Positions 4,579 through 32,988 of a DNA stretch of 64,000 bases are shown here, piece after piece. The DNA comes from Gemmatimonadota bacterium. Lineage in GTDB: Bacteria; Gemmatimonadota; Gemmatimonadetes; Palauibacterales; Palauibacteraceae. The position numbers were made by a program, and so were the translations under genes. Each line of letters starts with the position of its first letter. The first letter of the stretch is position 1. The stretch is taken from assembly GCA_039588275.1 (NCBI GenBank), contig JBDHAC010000028.1, forward strand, positions 10,007 through 74,006, in the 5' to 3' direction. The notes beneath the pieces are model-generated. The model saw only the letters and a list, made by a program, of their open reading frames with translations, had not been told where the DNA came from and ran no database searches.

Positions 4579-5655
4579 TCAGGCGACCTCCCTGAGCGCC
4601 GTAATGACGGGCTCCACCTCCGCGAGCAGCGCCCCTTTTTCCATCCGGTGCAGGAAGGCGCTCCGAAACCCGTTCAGGATCATCTCGGCGATCTCATCGA
4701 GCGTGAAATCGAGGTGCTTCCAAGCGCGGACGTATTCCTCCGTCACCGTCGTACCGCTCATGAGCCGGTTGTCGGTGTGCAGGCTCACCATGAGCCCTTC
4801 ATTGAAGTACCGGCGCACCGGGTGGCTCTCGAAGTCGGGGACGGCGCGGGTCTGGACGTTGCTCGTGAGGCAGATCTCGAGCGGGATCTGGAAGTCGTTC
4901 ACGTACTGCATGAGGTCCGGATCTTCGTGCAGACGCGTTCCGTGACCGATCCGCTGTGCCCCGCAGTAGTGAATCGCCTGGTGAATGGACTCCGGCCCGT
5001 ACGCTTCTCCCGCATGGATGGTCGCTCCGATGTTCGCGTTGCGAACCATGTAGAACGCGTTCTTGTGCTTCTTGGCCGGATAGTTGTACTCGGCCCCTGC
5101 CAGATCGAACGCGACCACGCCGCGGTTCTTGTACGCGATCGTGAGATCGGCCAGGTCTCGGGAGACGTGCGGCTCCATGTTCCGGATCCCGCAGATGATC
5201 AGGTTGGATCGGATCCCGAACTCTTCCTCCGCCCGGCGCATCCCCCGCAGTGGAGCGTCCACGGCCCCCGGGAGAGGGAGACCGTATCGGGTCACCAGGA
5301 TCGGAGAGTAGCGGATCTCGGTGTACCGGACGTTCTCGGCAGCCGCGTCCTCGCAGAGCTCGTACGCGATCCGCTCGAGCGCGCTGGGGCGTTGCATGAC
5401 GGAGAGGGCTACGTCGAAGCGAGCGAGGTAGTCCTCGAGGTTCTGGGCGTCGCGCACAAAAAAGTACTCGGACAGCTCTCGAGGGTCGTGCGTCGGGAGG
5501 TCGACGTCATGCTCCGCCGCGAGCTCGACGATCGTCTCGGGCCTCAGCGACCCGTCCAGGTGGACGTGCAGATCCGTCTTCGGCACCGCCCGAATGCGGT
5601 CCCGGACCTCCTGTTCGGTCACGATTAGCTCCTGAGAACGAGTCGCACGATCCAC
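4579..5655 (-). CDS. add: Adenosine deaminase
   Basis: PKTDLHVHLDGSLR, AFDLAGAE, TIHAGEAYG, RIGHG, LEICLTSN, HTDNRLMS motifs. Exact start uncertain. Confidence 0.9.
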   Translation of the reverse strand: MDRATRSQELIVTEQEVRDRIRAVPKTDLHVHLDGSLRPETIVELAAEHDVDLPTHDPRELSEYFFVRDAQNLEDYLARFDVALSVMQRPSALERIAYELCEDAAAENVRYTEIRYSPILVTRYGLPLPGAVDAPLRGMRRAEEEFGIRSNLIICGIRNMEPHVSRDLADLTIAYKNRGVVAFDLAGAEYNYPAKKHKNAFYMVRNANIGATIHAGEAYGPESIHQAIHYCGAQRIGHGTRLHEDPDLMQYVNDFQIPLEICLTSNVQTRAVPDFESHPVRRYFNEGLMVSLHTDNRLMSGTTVTEEYVRAWKHLDFTLDEIAEMILNGFRSAFLHRMEKGALLAEVEPVITALREVA

Positions 5656-5685
5656 GGCCGGATCCGACCCGGCTCGCGGTACGGG

Positions 5686-6930
5686 TTACTCGTAGCGGAG
5701 CGACTCGACGGGGTCAAGCCGGGCGGCCTTTCTCGCGGGCAGAATCCCGGCGATGAGCCCGATGGAGGCCAGGATCGCCACGCAGATGGAGGCGATCGGG
5801 AGAGATAGCTTCGGATTCAGGATGTACTGCAGTCCCTGGTCATCGGTAGCGATGCTGTCAACACCGACCACGATCGCGCTTGCGAGGGCCAACCCGAAGA
5901 TCCCGCCGCCGCCCGCGATCAGGAGCGCCTCGAAGATGAACTGGGCGACGATGTGTCGCCTGCGCGCGCCCACTGCAAGCTTGATCCCGATCTCGCGCGT
6001 TCGCTCGCGCACGACGACGTACATGATGTTCGCCACCCCCACTCCCGCCACCAGGAGCGTGAACCCACCGACGAGCCCGAGGAAGATCTGGATCCCGAGT
6101 CCGATCGCGCTCGTGATCTTCTCGTCTTCGATGAAGTCCCACATGGAGAGCGCCCGCTCGTCCGCCGGGTCGAACTTGTAGCGGCCCCCGAGCACCCGGT
6201 ACAGCTCGCTCTTCACCCGTTCGGCCTCCTTCACATCGCGGGGCCTGACCAGCAAGTGACCGACGTAGCGGTTTCCGTAGATCGTCTGGAACGTCGAGGC
6301 GGGGATGATGGCACGGTCCTCATCCGGCCCGTTGTTGCTCGAGTCCTGGAACTTCTTCTGCATGACGCCGACGACGGTGAACGGCAGCCCGTCGAGCATG
6401 AGCGTTCGTCCGACCGGTTCCATGTCTCCGAACAGGCGCTCGGCGATGTCATTGCCGAGAAACAGCACGCGGCGCTTCTCGCGCATGTCACGTGCGTTGA
6501 TGAACCGGCCGCCCTGCGCCGGGAACATGCGTCGCATCTCCATGAATTCGGGCGCGACGCCCTCCATGTACGTGGTCGTCTGGTTCTCGTCGAACTTGAG
6601 GTGCGTGCCCCAACGGCCGTAGGAAGGGCTCCCCATCTCGATCTCGGGGATGGCCCGCAGCAGCAATCCGAGGTCTTCCTCGCGCAGCCGGATGCGGCGG
6701 CCTTTGGGGAGACCCTGGTACGGCAGGTTCGTCTCTCCCCCGTACACCATGAAGATTCGCTCGCCCGCGTTGAGCAGCCCCTCAGAGATCTGGCGCCGCA
6801 GCCCCTCGCCGAACGCGAGCAGCAGCACGATCGAGATCGTCCCCCACACCACGGCGAAGATCGTGAGGAAAGCCCGCGTCTTTTGAACGCGCAGATCCCC
6901 GAAGAACTCCTCGATCAGGATCTTCCACAT
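5686..6930 (-). CDS. MacB/FtsX-type ABC transporter permease
   Basis: N-terminal TM helix, periplasmic domain, GVANIMYVVVRERTREIGIKLAVGA, C-terminal PARKAARLDPVESLRYE. Confidence 0.9.
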   Translation of the reverse strand: MWKILIEEFFGDLRVQKTRAFLTIFAVVWGTISIVLLLAFGEGLRRQISEGLLNAGERIFMVYGGETNLPYQGLPKGRRIRLREEDLGLLLRAIPEIEMGSPSYGRWGTHLKFDENQTTTYMEGVAPEFMEMRRMFPAQGGRFINARDMREKRRVLFLGNDIAERLFGDMEPVGRTLMLDGLPFTVVGVMQKKFQDSSNNGPDEDRAIIPASTFQTIYGNRYVGHLLVRPRDVKEAERVKSELYRVLGGRYKFDPADERALSMWDFIEDEKITSAIGLGIQIFLGLVGGFTLLVAGVGVANIMYVVVRERTREIGIKLAVGARRRHIVAQFIFEALLIAGGGGIFGLALASAIVVGVDSIATDDQGLQYILNPKLSLPIASICVAILASIGLIAGILPARKAARLDPVESLRYE

Positions 6931-21403: not shown

Positions 21404-22251
21404 TCCTCGACGAGATCATCGAGAGCAAGCGAGCCGAGGTCGCGTGGCTCGCCGGGGCCGCCGCGGATCTCGAAGCCGCGGCCGCCGCTGCCGGCCCGCC
21501 GCGCGGATTCGACGCGGCGCTTCGCGCCCCGGGATCCGTCTCGGTGATCGCGGAATTCAAGCGGCGGTCACCTTCCGAGGGTGACATCAATCCCTACGCC
21601 GACGTCGCGGGCGTGGCCCGGGCGTACGAGCGGGGTGGAGCGGCGGCGGCCTCGGTTCTCACCGACGGTCCCTATTTCGGCGGAGAGCTCGCGGACCTGC
21701 GACGCGCCCGCGACGCGTCCGGGCTGCCGCTCCTCCGGAAAGACTTTCTCATCGATCCCCTGCAGCTATACGAGTCGAGGGCGGCGGGCGCGGATGCGGT
21801 TCTGCTCATCGTCAAGGCGCTCTCCGACGGCACCCTGCGCGAGTTGCGCGCTGGGGCCGAGGACCTCGGCATGTCCGCGCTGGTCGAGGCACACGATGCG
21901 GCTGAGATCGAGCGCGCCCTGGATGCCGGCGCCCGCATCGTGGGCGTGAACGCGCGCGACCTGCAGACGTTCGATGTGGATCTCGAAGCGTCCCTGAACT
22001 TGATCGAAGAGATCCCCGGCGACGTGATCGCGGTCGCGGAGAGCGGTGTCCGCGGTGGAGCGGACGTAGAGCGTGCGGGGCGGGCCGGAGCCGACGCCGT
22101 ACTCGTGGGAGGCTGGCTCATGAAGAGCGATCCGCGCCGTGGTGTCGAAGAGCTGGCCGGTCATCGAAGACGCCCCCGGGCAGGGTGCGAAGACCCGGCC
22201 GGGACGCCGTTCGACGGGGAAGAAGCCGGGGACACGGCGTGGTCCGGGTGA
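21400..22251 (+). CDS. trpC: Indole-3-glycerol phosphate synthase
   Basis: TTG at 21400 overlapping the upstream stop gives MILDEIIESK. IAEFKRRSPSEG, SVLTDGPYFGG, LRKDFLID, GVNARDL, AESG motifs. Confidence 0.95.
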   Translation: MILDEIIESKRAEVAWLAGAAADLEAAAAAAGPPRGFDAALRAPGSVSVIAEFKRRSPSEGDINPYADVAGVARAYERGGAAAASVLTDGPYFGGELADLRRARDASGLPLLRKDFLIDPLQLYESRAAGADAVLLIVKALSDGTLRELRAGAEDLGMSALVEAHDAAEIERALDAGARIVGVNARDLQTFDVDLEASLNLIEEIPGDVIAVAESGVRGGADVERAGRAGADAVLVGGWLMKSDPRRGVEELAGHRRRPRAGCEDPAGTPFDGEEAGDTAWSG

Positions 22252-22922
22252 AGATCTGCGGGTGTCGAAGGCCCGTGGACGCGATGGCCGCTGCGGACGC
22301 GGGAGCCGCCTACGCGGGTGTCGTGTTCGCCGAGCGCCTGCGTCGCGTCACGCCTGCCGAAGCTGCCGAGATCCTCGCGCCTGCCCGTGGCCGCCTGCGT
22401 GCCGTCGGCGTCTTCGTGGACGCCGGCGACGACGAGGTCCTTTCCATACGGGAGGTGACGGGGTTGGATATCGTGCAGCTCCACGGCCGCGAGCCGGCCG
22501 AGTCGTGCGCGGCTCTGCGAGAAGCGGGCCTCGAGGTGTGGAAGGCCCTCCGCCCCCGCACCGCCGAGGAGCTCGCCGCGGGGCTGGATCGCTACGCCGG
22601 CGCCGTGGATGCGATCCTCGTGGAGGGGTTCTCGGGGGCGGCCGCCGGTGGCACCGGCACCGGCTTTCCCATCGAGTGGATCGCGCCATTGCGGGAGCAG
22701 CTCGCCTCGGATGACGAGGCGCGGCCTGCGGATGCACCGGGAGACGGCGTCGTGCGACCACGGTTCGTGCTGGCGGGCGGACTCACGCCCGAGAATGTCC
22801 GCGACGCGATCCGGCGCGCGCGTCCTTCGATCGTCGATGTGAGCAGCGGTGTCGAGCGTGCTCCAGGCGAGAAAGACCCTACACTCATCGAGCGCTTCGT
22901 GAGCGCGGCTCGCTCCCTCTGA
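22239..22922 (+). CDS. trpF: Phosphoribosylanthranilate isomerase
   Basis: VKICG, VGVFVD, VQLHGRE, GGTG, LAGGLTPENV, VDVSSGVE. Start is GTG 22239 or 22248. Confidence 0.93.
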   Translation: MVRVKICGCRRPVDAMAAADAGAAYAGVVFAERLRRVTPAEAAEILAPARGRLRAVGVFVDAGDDEVLSIREVTGLDIVQLHGREPAESCAALREAGLEVWKALRPRTAEELAAGLDRYAGAVDAILVEGFSGAAAGGTGTGFPIEWIAPLREQLASDDEARPADAPGDGVVRPRFVLAGGLTPENVRDAIRRARPSIVDVSSGVERAPGEKDPTLIERFVSAARSL

Positions 22923-23090
22923 GACTGTTCTGCAGCCCGGGCCAAAAGCCGATCCCGGGACCGGCCCCGAGAATCCTCCGAGGGCCGTGTCAGCCGTCTT
23001 TCGCATCCCAAAAAGGCCGTCATATTGCGCGTGCGACCCGCGGCTCACGTATCGGGCCGCTCCGGAGACGGTCGGTGGGAGGAGATTCGC

Positions 23091-25790
23091 ATGATACGAT
23101 CGCTCGTTCACGAGCCTCACAAGATAAAGACGGTTCGCCCCGCGTCGTTCCCCAGCCTTCAGGAGCGCAAGAAGTACCTGGCGGAGGCGCATTTCAACGT
23201 CTTCAACCTGACTCCCTCACAGGTCGGCTTCGACATGTGCTCCCTGGGGACCAGCGCCATGACCCAGGAGCAGTTGTCGGGGCAGCTGATCGGGGATGAG
23301 GCCTACGCCGGGGCCAGAAACTTCGAGCACCTGAAGAACGCGGTCCGCGACGTATTGGGGCATACCTACGTGTGTCCCACGCACAACATTCTCGGGTGCG
23401 TCAAGCTGGTGACGGCCACCATGGTCCCGGCGGGCTCGGTGGTCCCTTCGAACGCTCGCACGCGGACCGACATTCTGGCTCCGCGCCAGGTGAGTGTCCC
23501 GGACATTCGGGATCACAGCGAAGAGATCTTCACCGGTAGCGTCGATCTCGCCCGCCTGGAGGAGACCCTCGAGGAGGGGAACGTTGCGCTCATCAGCGTG
23601 CACGCGTTCGCGGACGGGCAGCACCCGTTCAGCCTCGGGAACCTGCGAGCGGTGCGCGCGCTCGCGGACCGATACGGGGTACGGCTCGTCCTGGACGGAT
23701 CGCGGGTGATCGAGAACGCCTGGTACATCCAACATCACGAGCCCGGGGTGGCCTCGCACGGCATCGCGGCCCTCGTGAAGCAGATCGCCAAGACGGCGCA
23801 CGTGTTCCAGATCGACGGCGCACAGGACCCCAAGTGCCCCACCGGCGGATTGCTGGCCACCGACAACCCGCAGGACCACGAGCACTTCATGAACGAGGTG
23901 GTGGTCTACGAAGGTCTCCACACCTACGGCGGCATGGCCGGACGAACGATGGAGGTCCTCGCTCGCGGCCTCGAGGAGATGTGCCTGGAGGATGAGGTGC
24001 AGTGGGTGATGCAGCAGACGGAGCGCTTCAGCGAGCGTCTGCGGGGCGCGGGTGTCCCGCGCGAGCGCGGGTGTGACGGGGCGTACGTCCGCGCCGACGC
24101 CTTCTTCCCCCATCTCGAGCGATTCCAGCAGGACGCGTTTTCGGCCGCCCTATACGAGATGTCGGGCGTACGGGCGCTGGCTCACGGTCGAGTCGGCCGC
24201 GATCAGATCGTCCCGGTACAGATCCCGCGCCTGGCGATGACGAGCCGGCAACTGGACCAGGTGGCGGACGCGATCATCAGCCTGTATCGGCAGCGGGAGA
24301 TGGTTCCGCCTCTCGAGCCGGCGCGAGACGGGCGCTGGCGGGACCAGATGCGGTACCGGTGGGTGTACTCGGACCTCGAGCCATACGAGTTCGATACCTA
24401 CCCCTTCCTGATCCACACCGTAGAGCGCATCGGGCGGTTGAGTCGGCGAGAACGGCAGCAGGCCATCCGCGAGGCGGGATACAACACGTTCCTCCTCCGC
24501 TCGGCCGATGTCACGATCGACCTGCTGACCGACTCGGGCACGTCGGCGATGAGCACCGATCAGTGGGCGGCCTACGATGGGGCGCGTGCGACCCCGACCA
24601 CGTCCGACGAGTACCTGCACCTGGTGGACGTTCTGCGCGAGGCCACGGGCTACGAGCACATCATCCCCACGCACCAGGGCCGGGCGGCCGAACAAATACT
24701 CTCGGAGATCATGATTCAGCCGGGTCAGATCGTGCCCGGGAACATGTATTTCACCACTACGAAGCTCCACCAGGAGCTTGCGGGGGGGATCTTCCGGGAC
24801 GTCATCGTGGATGAGGCTCACGATCCGCAGAGCGACTTCCCGTGGAAGGGGAACATCGCTCTGCCCAAGCTCGAGGCTCTGGTCGAAGAGCACGGCGCCG
24901 AGAAGATCTCCTACATTTCGTTCGAGCACTCGGTGAACATGGCCGGGGGCGAGCCCGTGTCGATGGACAACATGCGGGAGGTGTACGCCTACTGCTCCAG
25001 CCACGACATCCCGGTGTTCTTCGACGCCACCCGCATGGTGGAGAACGCCTACATGATCCAGCAGCGGGACCCGCACTACGAGAGTACGCGCGTGCGCGAC
25101 ATCCTGCGCGAAATGCTCCTGTACGGTGACGGGTGCACGGTGTCGGGGAAGAAGGACTTCCTGATCAACATCGGTGGCCTGCTGGCGTTCAAGGACAACG
25201 CCGAGTGGCGGGAGCTCGCGGAGGAGAAGATTCGCATCTACGAGGGGAAGGTCACCGATGGAGGGCTGGCGGCCTCCGACCTGGCGGCCATCGCGGTCGG
25301 CGTGCAGGAGATGCTGGACGATCGGTACATCCGGTCTCGAGTCCGCCAGACCGAGGCGCTCGGTCAGATGCTCCTGGACGCCGGCGTACCCATCGTCACG
25401 CCGCCGGGGACCCATGCCATCTTCCTGGACGCGAAGCGCTTCCTGTCCCATATCGACCAGGATGAGTATCCGGCCCAGCGGCTGGCGGCCGAGATCTACG
25501 TGGAGACGGGGGTGCGAGCGATGGAGCGCGGAAACGTCTCGAAAGGCCGCGATCCCGAGACCGGTGACAACTATCGGCCTCCGCTTGAGCTCGTGCGGCT
25601 GACGATTCCTCGCCGGGTGTATACGCGAGACCACATGAGGGCCGTGGCGGACGGCATCATCCGGCTGTACGAGAAGCGCGACGAGATCCAGGGGCTCAGG
25701 TTCGTGTACGAGCCGGACAAGCTCCGGTTCTTCCAGGGCCGGTTCGAGCCGGTCGAAGCCGGCGAGAGCGCGATCCCGGCCGGAGCCTAG
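23091..25790 (+). CDS. Tandem two-domain tyrosine phenol-lyase/tryptophanase-family beta-eliminating lyase (899 aa)
   Basis: ATG at 23091 with GGAGGAG SD. Two ~450-aa homologous halves. The C-half has [49 protein letters not shown] and LRFF. The N-half has GDEAYAG and [13 protein letters not shown] but DGAQD in place of SGKKD. Confidence 0.92.
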
Positions 25791-25839: not shown

Positions 25840-27078
25840 ATGCCCGACGAGCGCGACACGCTGACCGCCCCTGGTGGAGACGGCTGGTTCGGTTCATACG
25901 GCGGGCGCTTCGTACCCGAAACGCTGATTCCGGCGCTGGATGAGTTGAGCGCCGCGTGGGCGGCGGCGTGCTCCGACCCCGAATTCCGGCGCGAGCTCGA
26001 CCAGCTGCTGCGCGAGTTCGCGGGGCGCCCCACAGCGATGTACGAAGCCCGACGACTTGGCGACGCTCTGGGCGGCGTACGCGTGTGGCTCAAGCGCGAG
26101 GACCTGTGCCACACGGGGGCCCACAAGATCAACAACACGGTGGGACAGGCGCTGCTCGCCCGGCGTATGGGGAAGGAGCGGGTCATCGCCGAAACCGGGG
26201 CGGGCCAGCACGGCGTGGCCACGGCGACCGCGTGCGCGCTGTTCGGGTTCGAGTGCGTCGTGTACATGGGCAAGGAGGACATGCGCCGTCAGGCCCTCAA
26301 CGTGGAGCGCATGCGGCTCCTCGGGGCGGAAGTGCGTCAGGTAGACAGCGGCACGCGCACGCTGAAGGACGCCACCAACGAGGCCATTCGAGACTGGGTC
26401 GAGACGGTCGAGACGACGCACTACATCATCGGCTCGGTCGTAGGGCCGGCGCCATATCCGGAGATGGTGCGCGACTTCCAGCGGGTGATCGGGGACGAGG
26501 CCTCAGAGCAAATGACGGCCCGCGGGGTCGAGCCCGCAGCCGCCTTTGCGTGCGTCGGCGGCGGGTCCAATTCGATCGGGTTGTTCACCGCTTTTCTGGG
26601 TCGGGGCGAGGTCGAGCTCGTCGGCGTCGAGGCGGCGGGCGAAGGGGTCGATACGGGCCGCCATGCCGCCTCGCTGGGCGCCGGGATCCCGGGGGTGCTG
26701 CACGGCTCGTACAGCTATCTGCTGCAGGATGAGGATGGACAGGTGAAGCCGGCACACTCGGTCTCGGCGGGGCTGGACTACCCCGGCGTCGGCCCGGAGC
26801 ACTCGCAGCTCCGCGACAGCGGCCGCGTCCGGTATGAATCGGTCACCGACGCACAGGCGCTCGAGGCCTTCGAGGCGCTGTGTCGCCACGAGGGCATCAT
26901 CCCGGCCCTCGAAAGCGCGCACGCGCTCGCGCGGCTGGCGGCGGAGAAGGAACGCTGGGCGGGCCGCGATGTGCTCGTGTGCCTGAGCGGCCGGGGCGAC
27001 AAGGACGTCGGAGAGGTGGCGGCGCTGATCGGCCGGAAGCTCCCGGCGGGTCTCCAGAGCTCCTCAGTCTCGGACTGA
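25840..27078 (+). CDS. trpB: Tryptophan synthase beta chain
   Basis: [73 protein letters not shown]. Confidence 0.98.
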
Positions 27079-27111: not shown

Positions 27112-27714
27112 ATGGCATTCATCGATTACGTGAACGAGGACGAGATCCCACCCGAAGACCGGGTGCCGGACCACGACAACATCGTCCGCATTCACGGCGT
27201 ACACAGCCACACCATGCGCCAGCACTACGATCTGTATCGCGAGCTGATGTACGCGAAGGGGCCACTCACTCGAATCCAGCGCGAGATGATCGCTGTCGTC
27301 GTGTCGGCGGAGAATCGGTGCAAGTACTGACTGCTGCACCACGGGGAGGGTCTCCGTCGACTGCTGGAAGCCAAGGGGATGACCCCGGAGCCGCGAGAAG
27401 CGCTTCTCACCGCGCTGGCTATCGATCGGGAGGGTGCCGACCTGACGCCGCCCGACCGCGCGATGCTGGATTACGTCGTGAAGCTGACGCTGACGCCCGG
27501 TGATATCGGAGAAGCGGACGTCGATGCCCTGCGCGCGCACGGGTTCGACGATCGCGGGATCCACGATATCTGCGCCATCACGGCGTATTACGCGTTCGTA
27601 AATCGGATGGCCGACGGTCTCGGGGTCGAGCTCGAGCCCGACAGGAGCGACACGCTCGCGCGCGGACCCGGGTTCGATGGATCAGGCGGCGGCCAACCCG
27701 ACGGCGACGCATGA
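27112..27714 (+). CDS. AhpD/CMD-like peroxidase-related protein, predicted selenoprotein (CKYU)
   Basis: The track ORFs 27112..27330 and 27379..27714 are in one frame, separated only by TGA 27328-27330 in REMIAVVVSAENRCKY*LLHH, where the family has CxxC-xxH. The C-half has KLTLTPG...YAFVNRMADGLG. A hairpin follows at 27341-27357. Confidence 0.85.
27341..27357 (+). promoter_or_regulatory. Candidate bacterial SECIS element
   Basis: ACGGGGA-GGG-TCTCCGT stem-loop with G-rich apical loop about 17 nt downstream of the in-frame UGA. Confidence 0.55.
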
Positions 27715-29894: not shown

Positions 29895-30194
29895 GTGAAT
29901 TCCGCACCAGAGGACAGGGACCGAGGCCCCGGCAACGTGCGGCGCTGGCTTCGTGCCGCTCGCGAGATCTACGAGGGCATGTACATCGCCCCCTACCGTT
30001 CGGCGATTCACCGGGAATACCTGCGCCAACACGATCTCTTCCTGCTCGTCGGATTCTCCGACCTTCTCGGTGTGCCCAACCCGGTCCAGTTCTATACGCT
30101 CGAGCTGTATCCGGAGCTGCTGGAGGCGTTTCACACCTGGCACCTCCGGATGGGGCTCGAGCACCCGCCGGAGGGAGGTTTCCGCTGTTGCTGA
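29895..30194 (+). CDS. Small Cys-Cys-terminated protein (cory-CC-star type) associated with CstA/ArsA
   Basis: YRSAIHREY...DLFLLVGFSDLLGVPNPVQFYTLELYP...FHTWHLRMG...GGFRCC-stop. Directly upstream of the ArsA and CstA genes. Confidence 0.8.
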   Translation: MNSAPEDRDRGPGNVRRWLRAAREIYEGMYIAPYRSAIHREYLRQHDLFLLVGFSDLLGVPNPVQFYTLELYPELLEAFHTWHLRMGLEHPPEGGFRCC

Positions 30195-31201
30195 GCCCCG
30201 ATAGCGTGCTCCCGGACCGGCCCATCCTCTTCTTCGGGGGGAAGGGGGGCGTCGGAAAGACCACGCTGGCGGCCTCGGCGGCGCTCGGCCTGGCGGCGCG
30301 GGGCCACCGTACGCTGCTCGTGTCCACCGACCCGGCTCACTCGACCGGAGACATCCTGCAGGCCGATCTCGGCGCGGAGCCCCGCCCCGTGATCGCCGAT
30401 TGCTGGGCGATGGAGCTCGATCCTGAGCGTGAGGCGGACCGGTACATCGAGGAGGTCAAAGCTCGTGTCGCTACCGCGGCGCCACCGCGCCTGGTCGCCG
30501 AGGTCGAGCGTCAGATCGACATCGCTCGCGTCTCCCCGGGAGCCGTGGAGGCTGCCCTGTTCGAGCGATTCACGCGCATCCTCGAGGAGGAAGGGAAGGA
30601 TTTCGACCGGATCGTGTTCGACACGGCGCCGACCGGTCAGACGCTCCGTTTGCTCTCGCTCCCCGAGCTCATGACGGCGTGGATGACCGGCATGATCCAA
30701 CGCCGCAAGAAAGTCGGGGCGCTCACGCGCATGTGGAGGAACGTGGCGGGGTCGGCCGCATCCGATGCCGAGCGAGAGGACCCGGTCCTCGCCGCGCTCG
30801 AGGATCGGCGCGCCCGTTTTCACCGCGCCCGTCAGACGCTGACCGCCCCGGAGCGGGCCGCGTTCATCTTCGTGGTGATCCCCGAGCGACTCCCCATCTG
30901 GGAGACCGAGAAGGCGGTGGAGACGCTCTCGCGTCACGCAATTCCGGTCGGGGCGATCATCGTAAACCAGGTACTTCCGCCTCCAGCCGTCGAAGATGGT
31001 GGCGCGGCGTTCATGGAGGCCCGAAGGGAGCGCGAGGCGCTCTACCTTGCGAGGATCTCGCGTGACCTCGGAGATTGGCCAGTCCTCTGCGTCCACCTGC
31101 AGGAGACCGATCCAGTGGGAATTGACGCCCTCAAGGAGCTGGCGGGCGGGATACGCCCGGCCCCGCCCGAGTGGGGCGACCGCATGGAGGAGGGGCGGTG
31201 A
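30188..31201 (+). CDS. Single-domain ArsA/GET3-family ATPase
   Basis: FFGGKGGVGKTT, VSTDPAHS, SPGAVE, FDTAPTGQTLRLL, PERLP, IVNQV. Confidence 0.92.
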   Translation: MLSPDSVLPDRPILFFGGKGGVGKTTLAASAALGLAARGHRTLLVSTDPAHSTGDILQADLGAEPRPVIADCWAMELDPEREADRYIEEVKARVATAAPPRLVAEVERQIDIARVSPGAVEAALFERFTRILEEEGKDFDRIVFDTAPTGQTLRLLSLPELMTAWMTGMIQRRKKVGALTRMWRNVAGSAASDAEREDPVLAALEDRRARFHRARQTLTAPERAAFIFVVIPERLPIWETEKAVETLSRHAIPVGAIIVNQVLPPPAVEDGGAAFMEARREREALYLARISRDLGDWPVLCVHLQETDPVGIDALKELAGGIRPAPPEWGDRMEEGR

Positions 31202-32988
31202 GCGCGATCGTACTCCTTGTCGTCGGTGTCTCGGCGTTCCTCACGGGATACCACGTGTACTCCCGCTTCATCGCCCGCCGCATCTATCAGCTGGATCCCG
31301 ACTTCGTCACGCCGAGCCACGAGTTCGAGGACGGGGTGGACTACGTCCCCACGAACAAGCACGTGCTGTTCGGGCACCACTTCACATCCGTGGCGGGGGC
31401 GGCGCCGATCGTCGGCCCGGCGATCGCGGTCATCTGGGGTTGGCTCCCGGCGTTCCTGTGGGTGACGATCGGGACCGTGTTCGCGGGAGCCGTGCACGAC
31501 TTCGGGACGCTGTGGATCTCGACCCGGCACAAGGGCCGCTCCATCGGCACGCTCACCGAGTCGATCGTCGGTGACCGCGCGCGGGTGCTGTTCCTCCTCT
31601 TGATCTTCTTCCTGTTGCTCATGGTGAACGCGGTGTTCGCGGTCATCATCGCCAACCTGTTCATGGGGAACCCGGGTGCCGTGCTCCCCGTGTGGGGGTC
31701 GCTCGTCGTCGCCCTCATCGTGGGTTTCCTGATCTATCGAACCGGGGCGGGGATCCTGCTGCCGTCGCTCGGGGCGCTGGCGGTCCTCTACCTGATGATC
31801 TGGTTCGGTCAATACGTACCCTTCGAGCTACCGGACCTGATCGGGTTCGGGCCCACCGAGGCACAGCTGACGGCGGCAGGTGGGGACGCGGCCGTGGCCG
31901 CGGAGGCGGCGAACGCGGACGGGCAACGCGTGGGTTGGATCATCGTCCTGTTCATCTACACCTTCTTCGCCTCGGTCTTGCCCGTGTGGCTACTCCTCCA
32001 GCCGCGCGACTACGTGAACGGCCACCAGCTGTTCGTGGCGCTCGGGATCATCGGTGCAGGGGTCATCGTGACGAACCCGGAGGTGGTCGCGCCGGCGGTG
32101 AACACGAACCTCCCCGGCGACGCGCCCAGCTGGTTCCCGTTGCTGTTCATCACGATCGCGTGTGGCGCCATCAGCGGGTTCCACGGGCTCGTGGGCTCCG
32201 GGACCTCCTCCAAGCAGTTGAACAAGGACACGGACGCGCGCTACGTCGGGTACGGTGGGGCGCTGGGGGAGGGGACGCTCGCCGTCACGTCGATCATCGC
32301 GTGCACGGCCGGCTTCGCGGTCTTCGTGGGGCTCGACGGTTGGCACACACATTACGGCAGCTGGGCCTCGGCCTCGGCCGGCGCGACGGCCGCGTTCGTG
32401 AACGGGGTGGGCGTACTGGCGGAGGGAATCGGGATCCCCAGCCGGGTCGCCACGATCTTCGCGGCGGTCGTCGTGATCAGCTTCGCTGCCACCACGCTCG
32501 ACACCAGCATCCGACTCCAGCGCTACATCATCGGGGAGCTGGGCGTCGAGTATCGGGTCAAGCTCGTCCAGAATCGCTGGGTAGCGACCCTGGTCGCGGT
32601 CGTCGCATGCGCGCTCCTCGCCCTCGGCCTGGACCGGGGCGCCGGCGGCATGCGGATCTGGCCGCTGTTCGGCACGACCAACCAGCTACTGGCGGGTCTC
32701 AGCCTCCTGATCATCACGCTGTTCCTGTTTCGCCAGAAGCGGCCCGTGTGGGTGACGATCATCCCCATGACCTTCCTGCTCATCATGACCACCTGGGCGA
32801 TGATCCTGAACTTGCGCCGGTTCGCGGGCGAGAGTCAGACGCTCCTGCTCGTGGTCGGAGGCGCGATCTTCGTGCTCGAGATCTGGCTCCTGTTCGAGGC
32901 GGTGGCCGCGATCCGGCGCGTACGCGGGTTGCGGCACTCGGAAGACGCGGCGCTGGCGACCGCGGTCGAGGACCGAGGGGCTCCCTAG
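31198..32988 (+). CDS. cstA: Carbon starvation CstA family transporter
   Basis: DGVDYVPT, GHHFTSVAGAAPIVGP, GAVHD, WLLLQPRDY, TIACGAISGFH, WPLFGTTNQLLA. GTG at 31198 overlaps the ArsA stop. Confidence 0.94.
   Translation: MSAIVLLVVGVSAFLTGYHVYSRFIARRIYQLDPDFVTPSHEFEDGVDYVPTNKHVLFGHHFTSVAGAAPIVGPAIAVIWGWLPAFLWVTIGTVFAGAVHDFGTLWISTRHKGRSIGTLTESIVGDRARVLFLLLIFFLLLMVNAVFAVIIANLFMGNPGAVLPVWGSLVVALIVGFLIYRTGAGILLPSLGALAVLYLMIWFGQYVPFELPDLIGFGPTEAQLTAAGGDAAVAAEAANADGQRVGWIIVLFIYTFFASVLPVWLLLQPRDYVNGHQLFVALGIIGAGVIVTNPEVVAPAVNTNLPGDAPSWFPLLFITIACGAISGFHGLVGSGTSSKQLNKDTDARYVGYGGALGEGTLAVTSIIACTAGFAVFVGLDGWHTHYGSWASASAGATAAFVNGVGVLAEGIGIPSRVATIFAAVVVISFAATTLDTSIRLQRYIIGELGVEYRVKLVQNRWVATLVAVVACALLALGLDRGAGGMRIWPLFGTTNQLLAGLSLLIITLFLFRQKRPVWVTIIPMTFLLIMTTWAMILNLRRFAGESQTLLLVVGGAIFVLEIWLLFEAVAAIRRVRGLRHSEDAALATAVEDRGAP

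Follow-up and report, generated by a model that had tools for sequence, protein, structure and literature searches.

We analysed a 64,000-nucleotide stretch of contig JBDHAC010000028.1 from a Gemmatimonadota bacterium of the Palauibacteraceae (assembly GCA_039588275.1, positions 10,007 to 74,006 of the forward strand; hereafter the window), and focused on a gene at window positions 23091-25790 (+) that encodes a tandem protein resembling tyrosine phenol-lyase (TPL). This assignment is based on the translation, profile matches and relatives. The gene reads through without an internal stop to give 899 amino acids, and an AGGAG sequence resembling a ribosome-binding site lies 6 nucleotides 5' of the ATG (23080-23084, +). 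A TTG start at 23025 would extend the open reading frame (ORF) to 921 amino acids; close homologues have about 890. A scan for promoters and terminators stayed at the chance level, with one terminator-like site and no site resembling a promoter. The Beta_elim_lyase profile (PF01212) matched two stretches of the protein with 323.9 bits, passing the family cut-off of 27.

Structure-sequence matches and alignment divide the protein into a front unit (residues 1-425; 23091-24365, +), the putative donor half without the lysine for pyridoxal 5'-phosphate (PLP), and a back unit (residues 432-888; 24384-25754, +), the putative PLP- and substrate-binding half. TPL was the best match among solved structures for both: front-unit residues 8-406 matched residues 6-435 of 1C7G (E 1e-58), and back-unit residues 435-886 matched residues 4-454 (E 2e-162). 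The front unit is 33% identical to the Pantoea TPL, 28% to E. coli TnaA and 28% to the back unit, and the back unit is 55% identical to the Pantoea TPL and 39% to E. coli TnaA. A junction (residues 426-437; 24366-24401, +), with unit boundaries set by hand alignment, holds about 6 added residues and the start of the back-unit arm. The annotated Pantoea TPL served as the numbering ruler, and standard TPL numbering was confirmed at 22/22 positions checked. An earlier reading of the window from its letters alone (the sequence-only reading) had described two TPL-like halves in an 899-residue ORF, as the translation and both matches to 1C7G bear out.

The mechanism of TPL provides the reference for these units; papers are cited here by PMC number for the excerpts of their text that bear on it. 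In TPL, PLP is bound on Lys257 and elimination proceeds with Tyr71 as acid, together with Arg381 and Thr124 (PMC10170061, PMC9262865), the latter two binding the substrate hydroxyl (PMC9262865). Within the catalytic dimer, the equivalent Tyr72* belongs to the opposite chain (PMC11301627). Tyr74 and Tyr307 of E. coli TnaA, which align with TPL 71 and 291, bind the PLP phosphate of the neighbour (PMC2770544). In the enzyme, N-terminal strands join two catalytic dimers into a tetramer (PMC11512013).

By alignment, these residues are divided between the two units of the tandem protein. The front unit has the partner-donated acid catalyst in GDEAYAG (23292-23312, +), with Asp69, Glu70 (TPL Glu69) and Tyr72 (TPL Tyr71, codon 23304), and a YEGLHTYGG loop (23907-23933, +) in which Tyr279 (codon 23925) corresponds to TPL Tyr291 and E. 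coli TnaA Tyr307. Its PLP-lysine motif is dead, reading DGAQD (23814-23828, +), with Ser254 replaced by Asp242 and Lys257 by Gln245. The back unit has SGKKD (25143-25157, +), where Lys688 (codon 25152) corresponds to Lys257, the Schiff-base lysine of TPL (PMC10170061). It also has the TPL-type specificity motifs FTTT (24750-24761, +; Phe123, Thr124) and MERG (25521-25532, +; Met379, Arg381; PMC9262865) and the TPL-type lid motif LRFF (25722-25733, +; Phe448, Phe449; PMC10170061). Its donor motif is lost, reading ARATPTTS (24582-24605, +; Tyr71 to Pro502, Asp68 to Arg499), as is its donor loop, YEGKVTDGG (25239-25265, +; Tyr291 to Asp723). Every motif quoted in the sequence-only reading was found, with its Tyr (23304) and Lys (25152) aligning to TPL Tyr71 and Lys257.

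Reciprocal residue loss across the tandem family

Among 8000 scored candidates, which had 494-1574 amino acids, a protein search gave 1164 matches, including at least 119 relatives at 73-89% identity among the matches listed. In a species-genome scan, 180 of 197 candidate stretches were confirmed and 80 loci were kept, 71 of them full length. These span at least 8 named phyla or classes, the titles naming Gemmatimonadota, Acidobacteriota, Planctomycetota, Myxococcales/Deltaproteobacteria, Eisenbacteria, Desulfobulbaceae, Bacteroidetes and Gammaproteobacteria. A 50%-cluster search revealed 11 diverged full-length tandems among 150 matches listed, and of the 120 matches listed for a search seeded with one diverged tandem, at least 108 were new proteins. 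Nitrospira, Thermomonas and a Bathyarchaeia member are among the cluster names. Tandem genes of this design occur widely among uncultured microbes. Among the matches listed (best 120 of 2921 shorter proteins), no front-unit gene standing alone was detected; the front-unit-like matches there look partial and several carry the name "partial". The ESM Atlas matches listed were solely single-unit TPL/tryptophanase clusters of about 460 amino acids.

The residues were scored in a close set of 189 tandems (118 of 120 protein matches, leaving out two partial ones, plus the 71 loci), of which 184 are distinct, and in a distant set of 54 main-lineage tandems with 50-65% identity in the back unit. Given as front/back counts, Tyr71 and Tyr291 were each 184/0 in close and 54/0 in distant tandems, and Lys257 was 0/184 and 1/54. 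Asn185 and Arg404 were each 0/184 and 0/54, Arg381 was 3/184 and 5/54, Asp68 was 184/0 and Lys256 and Thr49 each 0/184 in the close set, and Phe123 was 0/54 in the distant set. All of Lys257, Thr49, Ser51, Arg100, Asn185, Asp214, Arg217, Ser254 and Arg404 are present in the back unit of 184/184 close homologues. Another 49 close proteins, a partly overlapping set, showed the same pattern (49/0 and 0/49). As a control, 65/65 single-unit TPL-type proteins carry both residue sets on one chain. TPL has Tyr71 and Tyr291 on the subunit that bears Lys257, whereas here the tyrosines and the lysine are split over two units in 184/184; likewise the TPL subunit of about 456 amino acids with one PLP each gives way to an 899-residue two-unit chain with one PLP lysine.

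A total of 176 positions are invariant in 70 single-unit TPL-type proteins; of these, 75 survive in the back unit alone and 15 in the front unit alone, and 11 of the 15 fall in TPL 67-73 and 283-300. In the partner segments named by the sequence-only reading, front-only positions made up 6/13 vs 9/163 elsewhere (Fisher p 1.6e-4) and back-only positions 0/13 vs 75/163 elsewhere (p 7e-4), alignment positions not being fully independent in these tests. Both units are under purifying selection in all 19 disjoint pairs compared: the ratio of nonsynonymous to synonymous substitution rates (dN/dS) was 0.05-0.27 in front units and 0.04-0.15 in back units.

The relatives of about 900 amino acids for which the sequence-only reading suggested searching were found, and they keep the reciprocal pattern almost without exception in the 184. 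Its account of duplication and fusion with complementary, not random, decay agrees with the pattern in 184 close and 54 distant homologues, and its expected stoichiometry of one PLP site per chain is consistent with a lysine confined to the back units of the close set. That the front half had lost its own-subunit residues holds for the lysine, Arg100 (0/184 in the close set) and Thr49, but Asp214 (179/184; front residue D202) and Arg217 (184/184; front residue R205) are kept. The loss of partner motifs from the back half is complete for Tyr71 and Tyr291, but not for Glu69, which back units keep in 51/54 distant and 2/184 close tandems.

Glu69 is a potassium ligand donated from the partner subunit in TPL, where Met288 also lines the partner's pocket. 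The front unit retains Glu69, and Gly52, Lys256 and Asn262 are present in the back unit; presumably these four residues serve a cation (K+/NH4+) site. Because Glu69 (184/2 in the close set) is 53/51 and Arg100 is 50/54 in distant members, the loss of these two is clade-specific, and as far as the alignments indicate the core of the split has the two tyrosines on one side and the lysine with the substrate pocket on the other.

In a second lineage of 17 tandem proteins that do not resemble TPL (P0133, P0135-P0137, P0386-P0393, P0397-P0399, P0401 and P0402; source names include Pantanalinema, Stenomitos and Sericytochromatia), Lys is found at 257 in both units (17/17). The front units keep Tyr71 and Tyr291 (17/17), the back units have Tyr291 in 0/17 and Tyr71 in 9/17, and Arg381 is absent from both. 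The back units of this lineage lie outside the TPL group in two trees. An independent origin of the lineage was considered and not adopted: a single clade of all back units was not rejected in the approximately unbiased (AU) test (p 0.161), and the front units are long-branched in two trees. Its members may represent intermediates, or enzymes that carry two PLP sites per chain and act on other substrates.

The predicted composite site and its alternatives

By sequence, the back unit carries every own-subunit residue that binds cofactor, carboxylate or phenol, and the residue distribution makes a composite active site highly probable. The front unit would pack against a back unit over the catalytic interface, where Tyr72 would protonate the leaving ring and Tyr279 would grip the PLP phosphate, and the mirror pocket, left without lysine and without tyrosines, would be dead. 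Because both units keep arm-like N-terminal strands, two chains would form a four-unit assembly shaped like TPL, in which two pockets are live and two dead. At the shared site, L-tyrosine is predicted to give phenol, pyruvate and ammonia. Taken as a whole, we think it probable that two fused, mutually incomplete TPL-type PLP units build one shared site per chain and cleave L-tyrosine.

Tyrosine or a close analogue is quite likely the substrate. The sequence-only reading had recognized TPL rather than tryptophanase signatures, and the comparison upholds this: the back unit has Thr124, Arg381 and Phe448 where E. coli TnaA has Asp137, Ile396 and His463. Thr124, Met379, Arg381 and Phe449 are retained in 183-184/184 close back units, with Phe448 in the same range, and Thr124, Arg381, Phe448 and Phe449 in 54/54 distant ones. 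The tryptophanase model TIGR02617 gave 596.5 bits against a cut-off of 825.8, and FTTT, LRFF and MERG stand where tryptophanase has FDTT and LRHF, with its Asp133/His458 pair, and Ile at 381. The back units group together in a single clade (support 98), which adjoins the named TPLs in two quick trees on subsets of 33 and 52 rows (support 87 and 92); in a third tree they are unresolved beside the named TPLs, yet inside a 97-supported group with them. The tandem gene (identity ≥74%, open frame ≥900 amino acids) occurs in 8 of 301 genomes from the phylum, a single-unit TPL-tier match in 33 others, and both together in 0; the unpublished genome G057 is included and belongs to neither group. Six of the 33 matches were checked, and all six have FTTT and LRFF. 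A separate tryptophanase (FDTT, LRHF) is found in 8/8 tandem-bearing genomes, and in the genome of the window it is canonical by its motifs FDTT, VEIGS and LRHF (L001:1393-2883, contig C56, −).

Several points weigh against a tyrosine-cleaving composite site. With TIGR02618, the TPL model (cut-off 720.7), the front unit alone scored 240.3 bits and the back unit alone 630.5, so that the whole protein reaches 865.7 only as a two-unit sum. The donor loop reads LHT and not the MPS of characterised TPLs; LHT is common to a single-unit subfamily. The lack of co-occurrence with single-unit TPL (0/8) is weak, with about 0.9 expected. A pure donor function leaves the Asp214 and Arg217 retained by the close front units unexplained. 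No neighbour, for instance a transporter for aromatic amino acids, was found to be conserved among 134 flanking ORFs, many of them probably spurious frames. The inter-chain geometry described next was drawn from published text descriptions, not from coordinates.

As to where the live site lies, we lean modestly towards one formed between two chains, with the junction linking each front unit to its non-catalytic back-unit neighbour. The front unit retains the counterpart of the last TPL strand, and about 11 residues then lead to the back unit's TPL residue 6 (hand alignment). The spacing from WRD to P-F-x-I-H was 19 residues in 46 of 47 scorable cases among 72 close-family sequences. The N-terminal arm strand of tryptophanase takes part in pairing across the A-C interface, which is non-catalytic (PMC2770544); its residues 12-17 align with TPL 9-14. 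The N-terminus nearest to a C-terminus would thus be that of the non-catalytic neighbour, which, together with the short junction, argues for inter-chain sites. Unit lengths are more variable in distant members (388-471), and the argument therefore may not apply family-wide.

A single-chain pseudo-heterodimer, in which Tyr72 of the front unit serves the back unit of its own chain, as the sequence-only reading had pictured it, is a credible though less probable arrangement. The sequence evidence for a composite site fits it equally well, and fusion of two such partners has already been seen in the single-chain serine palmitoyltransferase of a virus (PMC6148460). However, the junction adds merely about 6 residues, its length is fixed in the close family, and the A-C placement of the tryptophanase strand (PMC2770544) would put the nearest N-terminus on the non-catalytic neighbour. 

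Covariation by mutual information with average product correction (MI-APC; 289 sequences, effective number 81) mainly reflected phylogeny, and no contacts between the units could be drawn from it. The C-terminal lid with Phe448/Phe449 has to close on the substrate (PMC10170061), and a tethered front-unit lid would cripple the front pocket first, which could account for the constant polarity of front donor and back host.

It is rather unlikely that the site is composite but its physiological substrate is a ring-substituted tyrosine, 3,4-dihydroxyphenylalanine (DOPA) or a cysteine or serine derivative. The LHT loop and a Ser12 to Thr change depart from the named TPLs, a single unit scores under the TPL cut-off, and TPLs also act on DOPA and on serine and cysteine derivatives (PMC10170061). 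Set against this are the specificity residues kept in nearly all close and in all distant back units, and the invariant Tyr71, which suits a reaction that expels a poor carbon leaving group. The EGLHTYGG loop is found in a large subfamily of single-unit TPL-type proteins (P0319-P0385; L102-L107), with Val/Met at position 12 in 65/65.

The sequence-only reading had left the dead pocket free to be regulatory, and this part found no support beyond conservation within one clade. In the close family the pocket residues Asn99, Leu101, Asp175, Asp202, Arg205, Asp242 and Gln245 are fixed (179-184/184) and are faced by Asp723 (179/184) and Arg499 (153/184). PLP binding there is unlikely because bulky and acidic residues replace the phosphate cup. 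Fixation of these residues in a new state could point to a ligand-binding regulatory site and an allosteric enzyme, which we regard as unlikely: the conservation is confined to one clade, and distant front units carry other residues (Glu at 257 in 42/54, Arg217 in 8/54, Arg100 in 50/54) and so have no single ligand site in common. Fixed salt bridges that plug the pocket would account for the data equally. A structural plug appears the simpler reading, with regulation possible. Slightly more doubtful still is a broader scenario of self-asymmetric PLP lyases in bacteria and archaea, with polarity fixed by fusion, possibly twice independently, sites formed exclusively between chains, and the abandoned pocket of this clade rebuilt as a ligand-sensing allosteric site.

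We give very little weight to the back unit being a self-sufficient lyase for good leaving groups that pairs with other back units, with the front unit a mere scaffold. Family members embedded in polyketide synthases (PKS) lack Tyr71 and Arg381, and replacement of Tyr71 acts differently depending on the substrate (PMC3870968). However, the donor residues kept in the front unit of 238/238 main-lineage proteins would be needless for a scaffold, and the loss of interface residues is reciprocal. A decaying duplicate or assembly artefact, suggested by a front unit just 33% identical to TPL, was dismissed given the relatives at 73-89% identity, the 71 full-length copies among 80 loci in at least 8 named phyla or classes, and dN/dS values of 0.05-0.27.

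Genomic context and known systems

In the window, the tandem gene lies between a trpF-like gene upstream (22185-22922, +; PF00697) and a trpB-like gene downstream (25840-27078, +; PF00291, the name read from the sequence and its trpA neighbour), both taken as surroundings and not as parts of the tandem system. This trp position was found in 2/80 loci, 0/5 further loci and 3/41 genomes of the family, all three of this genus. Among these 41, 6 others hold the tandem gene elsewhere and 17 have trpF beside trpB without it, as hand-counted among the matches listed, with 46 matches unlisted. Confinement of the trp position to this genus ruled out a trp-operon function as a family trait. The tandem gene is an insertion between the trpF-like and trpB-like genes that carries little functional information.

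Other genes were observed near the tandem gene. An Lrp/AsnC-like gene, so named from its sequence, is divergent from the tandem gene on the minus strand in 7 Thermoanaerobaculia/Holophagales-type loci (L070, L077 and L084-L088, near 5350-5870; in L087 at 1346-1852). Between trpB and trpA of the window is a small gene (27379-27714) without a Pfam match, conserved in L009 and L010, whose product we take to be carboxymuconolactone-decarboxylase-like. At 29895-32988, downstream of a chromate transporter, a small ORF, an ArsA-type ATPase and a CstA carbon-starvation transporter stand in a row.

Databases often name the tandem proteins TPL or "tryptophanase", and several records deviate from the two-unit form. 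For Nitrospira calida (P0509, P0510), which may be a cultured host of the tandem gene, RefSeq gives a 465-residue back unit only, and a 923-residue form is also on record; the shorter entry is likely a start-site mis-annotation. The Bathyarchaeia-labelled P0502 (cluster of P0394) has 467 residues and a back unit only, reflecting truncation, a split gene or mis-annotation. In P0155 (706 amino acids) and P0175 (625 amino acids), a complete lyase unit follows a short, degenerate remnant that looks like the same fold's arm and small domain. In one Eisenbacteria genome, the gene immediately upstream of the tandem gene encodes a single-unit beta-eliminating lyase (L064:4575-5975; 43% identity).

The closest known enzyme in sequence is TPL itself (EC 4.1.99.2; Citrobacter freundii, Erwinia/Pantoea; PDB 1C7G, 2EZ1, 1TPL; TIGR02618), to which the back unit is 55% identical. 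The back unit has all own-subunit catalytic and specificity residues of TPL, and the front unit would supply the partner residues. TPL is a homotetramer with 4 PLP sites, whereas the tandem has two unequal units per chain and one predicted PLP. The tandem also lacks the adjoining tyrosine transporter of the Pantoea and Phytobacter TPL genes, and its LHT loop is unlike that of named TPLs. Because the homo-oligomer feature of TPL is absent, the tandem is classed, on its residues, as a TPL variant and not a plain member. Tryptophanase (EC 4.1.99.1; E. coli TnaA, PDB 1AX4) shares the fold family and the shared-site design, but the tandem lacks its Asp/His pair, having Thr124 and Phe448 instead, and has Arg381. 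The PKS-embedded Beta_elim_lyase domains (LnmJ type; PDB 9CEN) lack Tyr71 like the tandem back unit, but also lack Arg381 and a donor unit, whereas the tandem keeps Arg381 and has Tyr71 on its front unit.

The closest analogue in design is the serine palmitoyltransferase pair LCB1/LCB2, a fold-type I PLP enzyme of a different family and reaction in which, as in the tandem, one unit lacks the PLP lysine. The excerpts describe LCB1 as lacking the lysine, the pair as presumably having a single site, and a coccolithovirus as fusing both (PMC6148460, PMC5371807). The lysine-bearing unit is N-terminal in that fusion and C-terminal in the tandem TPL. The lysine-less unit of the tandem retains the partner-donated residues and differs from LCB1/LCB2 in bearing a residue that serves its relatives as the catalytic acid. 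No paper on a tandem TPL was found in a literature search of titles and abstract openings, with most subscription journals and supplements outside its reach. The tandem form is real and conserved, and it appears to be undescribed.

The tandem family provides a natural counterpart of shared-active-site complementation experiments, in an enzyme family used industrially for L-DOPA synthesis, with the catalytic acid and the cofactor lysine sorted onto separate units across hundreds of sequences. Together, the graded intermediates and the two-lysine lineage form a testable series for the loss of homo-oligomer symmetry after duplication and fusion. Each half, donor or host, could be engineered on its own, and the price of working with half as many sites could be measured. 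The TPL and tryptophanase labels, and the back-unit-only annotation in one genome, mask a likely release of phenol from tyrosine in soils and sediments.

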